Below are positions 37,995 to 38,070 of a stretch of DNA of 64,000 nt, in pieces; the stretch's first letter is position 1, and each line of letters begins with the position of its first letter. The notes under the pieces were generated by a model, which saw only the letters and a list, made by a program, of their open reading frames with translations, was not told the DNA's origin and did no database searches. The translations under genes were made by a program, and so were the position numbers. Source of the DNA: Escherichia coli 042 (GTDB lineage: Bacteria > Pseudomonadota > Gammaproteobacteria > Enterobacterales > Enterobacteriaceae). Location of the stretch: the NCBI RefSeq assembly GCF_000027125.1, contig NC_017626.1, one strand, 5' to 3'.

Positions 37995-38070
37995 TGGTGG
38001 CCCCTGCTGGACTTGAACCAGCGACCAAGCGATTATGAGTCGCCTGCTCTAACCACTGAGCTAAAGGGCC
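37995..38070 (-). tRNA. ileY: tRNA-Ile (anticodon CAU, lysidine-modified Ile2 type)
   Basis: Reverse complement reads GGCCCTTTAGCTCAGTGGTTAGAGCAGGCGACTCATAATCGCTTGGTCGCTGGTTCAAGTCCAGCAGGGGCCACCA, cloverleaf-consistent with encoded CCA. Confidence 0.9.

Follow-up and report, generated by a model that had tools for sequence, protein, structure and literature searches.

The tRNA-Ile2 gene ileY is an empty phage 186-type attachment site within an optional accessory block between ssrA and glaH in a strain of Escherichia coli

A tRNA gene with AT-rich accessory genes on both sides raises the question whether it served as the point of entry for its neighbours. In the window, by which we mean the whole 64-kb stretch of Escherichia coli DNA that was analysed, the tRNA gene ileY is found in such a setting, and the initial annotation described it as a second integration hotspot besides the island at ssrA. 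The data described here lead to a more restricted picture. We are fairly confident that ileY is a dispensable tRNA-Ile2 gene with a known 46-nt attB, that it is empty here, and that it lies within a 10.7-kb accessory block, with flanking genes that were not visibly delivered via ileY. The mosaic character of the window would then be due to an active element at ssrA plus an older accessory block. The coordinates of the features are collected in Table 1.

Table 1. Features of the ssrA-glaH region; coordinates are those of the 64-kb window.
Feature	Coordinates	Strand	Remarks
ssrA (tmRNA)	3384-3746	plus	ARAGORN, Rfam
26.4-kb integrative element at ssrA	3747-30117	plus	GC 0.376; absent from closest relative
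Native sequence downstream of ssrA, with hairpin terminator	30118-30271	plus	kept with or without the block
10.7-kb accessory block (ypjA, recombinase remnant, ypjC, ileY, ygaQ)	30272-41006		between ssrA terminator and glaH
ypjA/ehaD-type AIDA-like autotransporter adhesin	30281-34984	minus	Pfam AIDA, Pertactin, Autotransporter beta-domain; longest ORF, true start may be further in
Serine recombinase fragment (Pin-like invertase/resolvase)	35250-35432	minus	Pfam Resolvase N-terminal domain
ypjC/ypjCB (DUF5507 + DUF5508), two frames	35789-37243	minus	ORFs 35789-36886 and 36896-37243
Native flank 3' of ileY	37799-37994		stays on chromosomal side of insertions in PD4 and EC-1639
ileY (tRNA-Ile2, anticodon CAT)	37995-38070	minus	ARAGORN, Rfam, ileX identity, RefSeq
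attB core, 3'-terminal 46 nt of ileY (tRNA positions 31-76)	37995-38040	minus	46/46 to 186 attP; unoccupied
ygaQ-type alpha-amylase-family gene	38630-40882	plus	intact 750-codon ORF, weak Pfam matches

ARAGORN detected two RNA genes in the 64-kb window, ssrA on the plus strand and, on the minus strand, a 76-nt tRNA gene with anticodon CAT that occupies exactly the positions assigned to ileY from the start. The Rfam tRNA model matched it over its full length (71.6 bits, E=1e-13, gathering score 29), as expected for a canonical cloverleaf. The label Met given by ARAGORN follows from the CAT anticodon. The body of the tRNA is of the Ile2 type and not of the Met type: it is identical to ileX at 75 of 76 positions, the sole difference being C to T at position 6, and to the K-12-type ileY likewise at 75 of 76, the sole difference being at position 67. 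The RefSeq label for the same gene is tRNA-Ile, both in a 99.9%-identical relative and in a genome of the K-12 type (2785762-2785837), and the gene order ypjC-ileY-ygaQ-glaH is common to the window, the K-12-type record and the closest relative. For annotation, the gene is best recorded as Ile2 (ileY) and not as Met. The acceptor-stem pairs C4-G69 and C5-G68, which are recognition elements of TilS, are present in the window ileY, and from its CAU anticodon the tRNA is predicted to have C34 modified to lysidine and to read AUA. Upstream of ileY no confident sigma-70 promoter was found, the best minus-strand match being 9/12 and within chance expectation. A permissive Rfam scan for hidden structured RNA beside ileY returned the tRNA only, together with a sub-threshold mirror-strand match.

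ileY is a genuine integration site, and it was already documented as such. In the reference record of phage 186 (Eganvirus ev186, NC_001317), the attP at 20985-21030 is identical to tRNA positions 31-76 over 46 of 46 nucleotides, and the annotation of a truncated tRNA-Ile at attP states that this segment is shared with the E. coli attB in the 3' end of ileY. Since this record itself names ileY as attB, the role of the gene in integration was known before. The sites given for 186 in MG1655 by a 2011 survey of P2-like phages are ileY and ileX (PMC3448106), and a 2021 study on O121:H19 describes one attB common to ileX and ileY for SpLE1-like integrative elements (PMC8767318). The 186 record further contains a predicted 7-nt crossover region (21023-21029), located at the anticodon-loop end of the core. 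In the proposed mechanism, the 3' 46 nt of ileY, from the anticodon loop to CCA, would act as the attachment core for the tyrosine integrases of 186-type prophages and of islands with a P4-type integrase. Incoming elements would carry the same 46 nt in attP and recombine within the core, and after integration one junction would have a restored, complete tRNA and the other the native 3' piece that had been displaced.

Occupied alleles were found in other genomes. E. coli EC-1639 harbors a complete P2/186-like prophage between ypjCB and ileY, with integrase, CI, CII and Fil as well as replication and late genes, and MSB1_8G similarly has a P2-family prophage directly next to ileY; both are at the exact site whose core is identical to that of the coliphage 186 attP. 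The integrase-side junction of EC-1639 keeps the native flank and the native 3' 46 nt of the tRNA (it matches window positions 37901-38040), and the other junction has an intact tRNA of which the 3' part shows compensated T-stem substitutions, as expected if this part was supplied by the phage. PD4 carries an island of about 55 kb at the same ileY point, with the same 46-47-nt duplication of the tRNA end and a far junction that matches window positions 37799-38041. Its cargo includes a P4-type tyrosine integrase, pga and raffinose genes, type I restriction-modification, CTX-M-32 and a cbtA/yeeU-type toxin-antitoxin system. In EC-1639 as well as in PD4 the integrase-bearing element has an intact tRNA at one end and a displaced partial copy of it at the other, and the integrases of both contain the Pfam Phage_integrase domain. 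The PD4-type island junction was detected in 98 genomes; a search with the EC-1639 junction at a threshold of at least 80% matched that genome alone, the phage side being too variable. The elements seen at ileY are thus of at least two unrelated types, and the literature adds the SpLE1-like elements (PMC8767318). A PD4-type integrase junction was also seen at a second chromosomal position in another genome; this position has a different flank and may be ileX. The rebuilt ileY genes of EC-1639 (L003, 20004-20079) and PD4 (L005, 20001-20076) have the same compensated T-arm variant (T50, A59, C60 and A64), so two different element types share one attP core allele.

The position of these insertions determines how the genes 3' of the tRNA are to be read. 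The initial annotation had in effect treated the autotransporter, the recombinase remnant and ypjC as cargo of ileY. The insertions go between ypjC and the tRNA, leaving a native flank of about 200 bp outside, and where a breakpoint lies at the tRNA end (window position 37992), an element has been added and ypjA-ypjC are still found on its far side. Since ypjA, the remnant and ypjC lie beyond the inserted element in every occupied genome examined, they are not recognisable as ileY cargo and that part of the earlier description is not supported.

In the window itself the ileY site is unoccupied: it lacks a duplicate of the tRNA end and an integrase, and its native flank is intact. The proposed search for partial duplicates of the ileY 3' end in 30100-37990 came out empty, and the same was true for the rest of the DNA, since searches of the whole 64-kb window that allowed 3 mismatches in 25 nt or 2 in 16 nt found no partial copy. 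No k-mers of 11 nt or longer were common to the ileY 3' end and the rest of the window, blastn-short and the k-mer scan giving only chance 7-10-mers. At the distal boundary of ypjA-ypjC there is no direct repeat of the tRNA 3' end. Neither a tyrosine integrase nor a remnant of one was found among the genes of the accessory block, and ypjA and ypjC are without integrase domains in Pfam. Among the sampled genomes, none showed presence/absence polymorphism of ypjA-ypjC with a breakpoint at the tRNA 3' end and the tRNA kept. In contrast to coliphage 186 lysogens, the window contains no prophage at this site and represents the attB (empty) state, so that positions 37995-38040 can be annotated as an empty 186-type attB. 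The alternative that ileY is occupied in the window was ruled out by the absence of a tRNA-end duplicate.

The ileY allele of the window deserves a separate remark. It has T6/G67, a U-G wobble in the acceptor stem, which is intermediate between C6-G67 of ileX and T6-A67 of the K-12-type ileY; the K-12-type attB differs from that of the window in this respect, position 67 being inside the core. The displaced native ileY copies in EC-1639 and PD4 have A67. We considered G67 as a footprint of past integration and excision and judged this unlikely: the 3' flank in the window is of the native type, and precise excision would restore the native 3' part of ileY because the 186 crossover region is at the anticodon-loop end of the core.

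Given the minus-strand orientation of ileY, its 3' side is that of ypjC, the recombinase remnant and ypjA and its 5' side that of ygaQ, which confirms the arrangement originally given. The suggestion that AT-rich genes flank the tRNA on both sides applies to the immediate neighbours (GC 0.31-0.38) and not to the autotransporter gene ypjA, which has a GC content of 0.492. The values are 0.364 for positions 35000-37994, 0.308 for the ileY-ygaQ spacer and 0.379 for ygaQ, against 0.517 from glaH onward. In relatives, RefSeq describes the ypjA product as 'adhesin-like autotransporter YpjA/EhaD'. The recombinase fragment matches the Resolvase N-terminal domain (E=9e-7) at profile positions 59-100 of 145 only; its frame contains the sequence ERGINF, and RefSeq calls it 'recombinase family protein, incomplete'. 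It derives from a serine recombinase of the Resolvase family and is not an integrase, whereas the elements seen at ileY have tyrosine integrases. The ypjC frames match DUF5508 (E=5e-137) and DUF5507 (E=3e-55) and are annotated as 'frameshifted' in RefSeq for the 99.9%-identical relative. For ygaQ the Pfam matches are weak, with Alpha-amylase_C above the cut-off and the Alpha-amylase catalytic domain just below it. The gene has no internal stops in the window and three in the K-12-type genome, where it is a pseudogene. The ygaQ homologue of E. albertii is also intact and encodes 747 amino acids.

Comparison with an O6:K2:H1 genome showed that the tRNA and its neighbours come and go together. 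In that genome ssrA is followed by glaH after only about 680 bp: the 154 bp after ssrA are kept, then about 320 bp of unrelated sequence follow, and the window is rejoined at 41007. The breakpoints are exact (30271/30272 and 41006/41007), and this alignment defines 30272-41006 as one presence/absence unit with ileY inside. The native segment 30118-30271 matches the sequence directly after ssrA in the closest relative (L001) and in L007, L011 and L013. No direct or inverted repeats were found between the block ends, nor an integrase or IS ends at them, and a search of the window with word size 7 for a counterpart of the 320-bp spacer gave chance matches only.

The frequency of the block was determined in 5,426 complete E. 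coli genomes, which are biased to clinical and laboratory isolates, so that the numbers are database frequencies. ileY with its 5' flank is present in 3,089 of the 5,426 genomes (57%), and in 2,889 both flanks are intact as in the window. The arrangement without the block, with the spacer of about 320 bp, accounts for 1,100 genomes (20%), including Nissle 1917. Two other classes were examined, in which IS3 abuts window position 39774 and an IS2 remnant abuts position 38458; in both, ileY was lost by IS-associated deletion together with the DNA to its left. Genomes examined that lack ypjA-ypjC, i.e. those of the Nissle-type, IS3 and IS2 classes, also lack ileY. A match to the tRNA was obtained in 5,423 of the 5,426 genomes, the only match in those without the ileY context being at another chromosomal position. 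In the one such case examined the remaining tRNA is ileX, in the order nfeF-ileX-mug-rpoD.

ileY is therefore part of an optional block and not a fixed landmark with accessory DNA on either side, as had been assumed: the block that contains it is absent from about one fifth of E. coli genomes and from E. whittamii. This is an incremental refinement. The proposed pan-genome comparison of the interval from ssrA to csiD (glaH) came out in favour of the initial annotation, since the interval is highly variable across E. coli and related species and not invariant. Only the optional nature of ileY itself, with a conserved 320-bp spacer in place of the whole block, adds a little to textbook knowledge. 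The low-GC DNA around ileY should accordingly be annotated as an accessory block and not as an insertion at the tRNA. ileX and ileY share the same attB core and differ in their surroundings: ileX has a core neighbourhood and is essential in K-12, whereas ileY is dispensable and lies in the accessory block, a context absent from about 43% of the complete genomes. [quoted passage not shown]

The ssrA site behaves differently. The island reported there is real: the closest relative jumps from window position 3746 to 30118. Among the products of the low-GC element in between are a P4-type tyrosine integrase (3871-5142), a relaxase of the MobA/MobL type (10352-11860) and two proteins with domains of unknown function, DUF3644 (5164-6501) and DUF6387 (28655-29521). 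This gene content suggests an integrative mobilisable element. At its right end only a short imperfect repeat of the ssrA end was seen (CGCCAGC..CCA, near 30107-30119). The principle is the same as that of CP4-57-type elements at ssrA, i.e. a P4-type tyrosine integrase that targets the 3' end of a structured RNA gene. The K-12-type genome has the CP4-57-type toxin-antitoxin genes yfjZ and ypjF next to ypjA. The closest relative, O158:H23 CFIAFB20140388 (L001, 1-11758), which is without the ssrA island, contains P2-family prophage genes (replication endonuclease and a Cox-family DNA-binding protein) with the tyrosine integrase last, directly upstream of pheL.

ssrA runs straight into its native downstream sequence in 2,528 of the 5,426 genomes and is separated from it in 2,898, so about 53% of the sites are occupied or rearranged. 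At ileY the 3' side is altered in at most about 200 of the 3,089 ileY-bearing genomes (6.5%), a figure which is an upper bound and results from subtraction (3,089 - 2,889) rather than from counting occupants; 98 of these genomes have the PD4-type island. The true hotspot is ssrA, and ileY is a genuine but minor site that is used far less (at most 6.5% versus 53%). The term hotspot therefore probably overstates the use of ileY, although its use as an integration site was described correctly. The same applies to the proposal that two tRNA/tmRNA insertion sites explain the mosaic. The ssrA site is occupied in the window and accounts for its share, whereas the ileY site is empty here and rarely used; the mosaic GC profile is due to the ssrA element together with the low-GC parts of the accessory block, not to two occupied tRNA sites.

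To follow the block outside E. coli, GlaH was used as an anchor with one genome per species. In E. whittamii and Escherichia sp. E1V33, ssrA lies about 700 bp upstream of glaH and the tRNA is absent. Their spacer is homologous over its full length to that of E. coli genomes without the block (93% column identity across the three), and a representative of a fourth lineage also carries it. Conservation of this kind across lineages rules out a deletion scar. In E. albertii, a tRNA with the anticodon CAT and a ygaQ-like gene lie as far from glaH as in the window. DNA identity to the window is 74% for the tRNA region and 67.5% for the ygaQ-like gene, as compared to 93% for glaH; at the protein level YgaQ is 60% and GlaH 97.8% identical. 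The E. albertii DNA 3' of its tRNA is unrelated to that of the window, and no tRNA remnants or repeats and no integrase were seen in the available 6.6 kb. This DNA contains three ORFs without a Pfam match and, about 5.4 kb 3' of the ileY-like tRNA, a gene for an EspG-family type III effector (Pfam E=1e-166; L012, 3-1190). In Citrobacter, Salmonella and other genera neither ssrA nor a CAT tRNA was found within 10 kb upstream of glaH.

The block is most likely acquired accessory DNA with a history separate from that of the flanking core. The polarity of the event, insertion or loss, is not proven: in the more distantly related E. albertii the same position is taken by a CAT-anticodon tRNA and a ygaQ-like gene, so that an old block with later loss from part of the lineages is a live alternative. 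In its full form this alternative holds that the block including ileY is ancestral to Escherichia, that the ssrA-spacer-glaH arrangement is a derived deletion spread by recombination, and that ileY is an old core tRNA on its way out. The IS-associated deletions of ileY in the other classes and the dispensability of ileY in K-12 (PMC11480407) agree with this. A simple deletion cannot, however, create the roughly 320 bp of own sequence which occurs in at least four no-block lineages and has no counterpart in the window. The block has also diverged far more between E. albertii and E. coli (YgaQ 60% at the amino acid and about 67% at the nucleotide level) than GlaH, no CAT tRNA occurs within 10 kb upstream of glaH outside Escherichia, and the composition and AUA use of the block genes are atypical. 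We therefore regard ancestry of the block as unlikely. Another possibility is that ileY is a resident core gene with an eroded island at its 3' end, made up of ypjA, the remnant and ypjC, and that ygaQ is a separate accessory gene. These genes are indeed on the insertion side of tRNA-targeting elements, they include the AT-rich, frameshifted ypjC and a recombinase fragment, and the wholly different 3' DNA of E. albertii, including the EspG gene, next to a retained unit of tRNA and ygaQ-like gene indicates that this side turns over between species. Against this stand the absence of a tRNA 3'-end duplicate from the window, the Resolvase family membership of the fragment, which is unlike the tyrosine integrases at ileY, and the ordinary GC content of ypjA (0.49). 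Moreover, real insertions enter between ypjC and the tRNA with a conserved native flank left in place, and the examined genomes without ypjA-ypjC (Nissle-type, IS3 and IS2) are also without ileY, which makes an eroded island at ileY improbable.

The proximity of ssrA offers a further explanation, in which the block is a decayed island that had integrated at ssrA, a second-tier ssrA island with ileY as cargo. The block starts only 154 bp after ssrA, which is used very heavily, and islands commonly accumulate in tandem at a single tRNA or tmRNA site. A BLAST search (word size 9, E<0.05) found no ssrA-derived repeat elsewhere in the window, hence none at the far end of the block. In addition, the block has no integrase, and its left boundary follows the ssrA terminator, whereas the present island is attached to the 3' end of ssrA itself. 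With neither ssrA-derived nor end-to-end repeats, an ssrA-integrated or transposon-like origin of the block lacks support, and we consider the decayed ssrA island very improbable.

AUA, the codon for ileY, is enriched within the block. The number of AUA codons per 1,000 is 28 in ygaQ, 11-17 in ypjC and 11.5 in ypjA, as compared to 0 in glaH and 2.4 in lhgO. An extra AUA-reading tRNA might be of benefit to such AUA-rich neighbour genes. Accessory tRNAs for rare codons are found on mobile DNA, an example being ileZ-argN-argO of Stx phages. Like these, ileY is a tRNA for a rare codon (AUA) among AT-rich, AUA-rich accessory genes; unlike them, it is surrounded by a block without recognisable mobility genes. 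A tentative scenario, which we would put somewhat below even chances, is that ileY is a horizontally acquired extra copy of ileX in an AUA-rich block, and that the duplicated 46-nt core gave ileX-targeting phages and islands a second, dispensable landing pad beside ssrA. The T6/G67 allele of the window would then be an evolutionary intermediate. As a modest and incremental extension, the optional nature of ileY suggests that a secondary integration site can arise through the acquisition of a tRNA copy.

Phage-borne tRNAs were examined as a source of ileY. The tRNA is matched by 2,508 phage records, and full-length tRNA-Ile2 genes are present in many phages. Two such genes were examined, those of Pectobacterium phage Ymer (L091, 2501-2576; annotated as tRNA-Met) and the T4-like Salmonella phage STML-198 (L092, 601-676); both are identical to E. 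coli ileX and not to ileY, which gives no support to this candidate source.

Two minor features of the region may be added. The conserved ypjC-ileY flank has, on the strand that does not encode the tRNA, a promoter-like site (TTAACC-16-TATAAT, 10/12, plus strand, 37698-37725) and after it a hairpin with a T-run that resembles a strong terminator (37781-37802). No Rfam family matched these elements, which could give a short transcript or act as a terminator that shields the tRNA from read-through. Several kb downstream of glaH, positions 46305-46381 match the Rfam family naRNA4 (nucleoid-associated non-coding RNA 4, CssrE) with 70.4 bits, above the gathering score.
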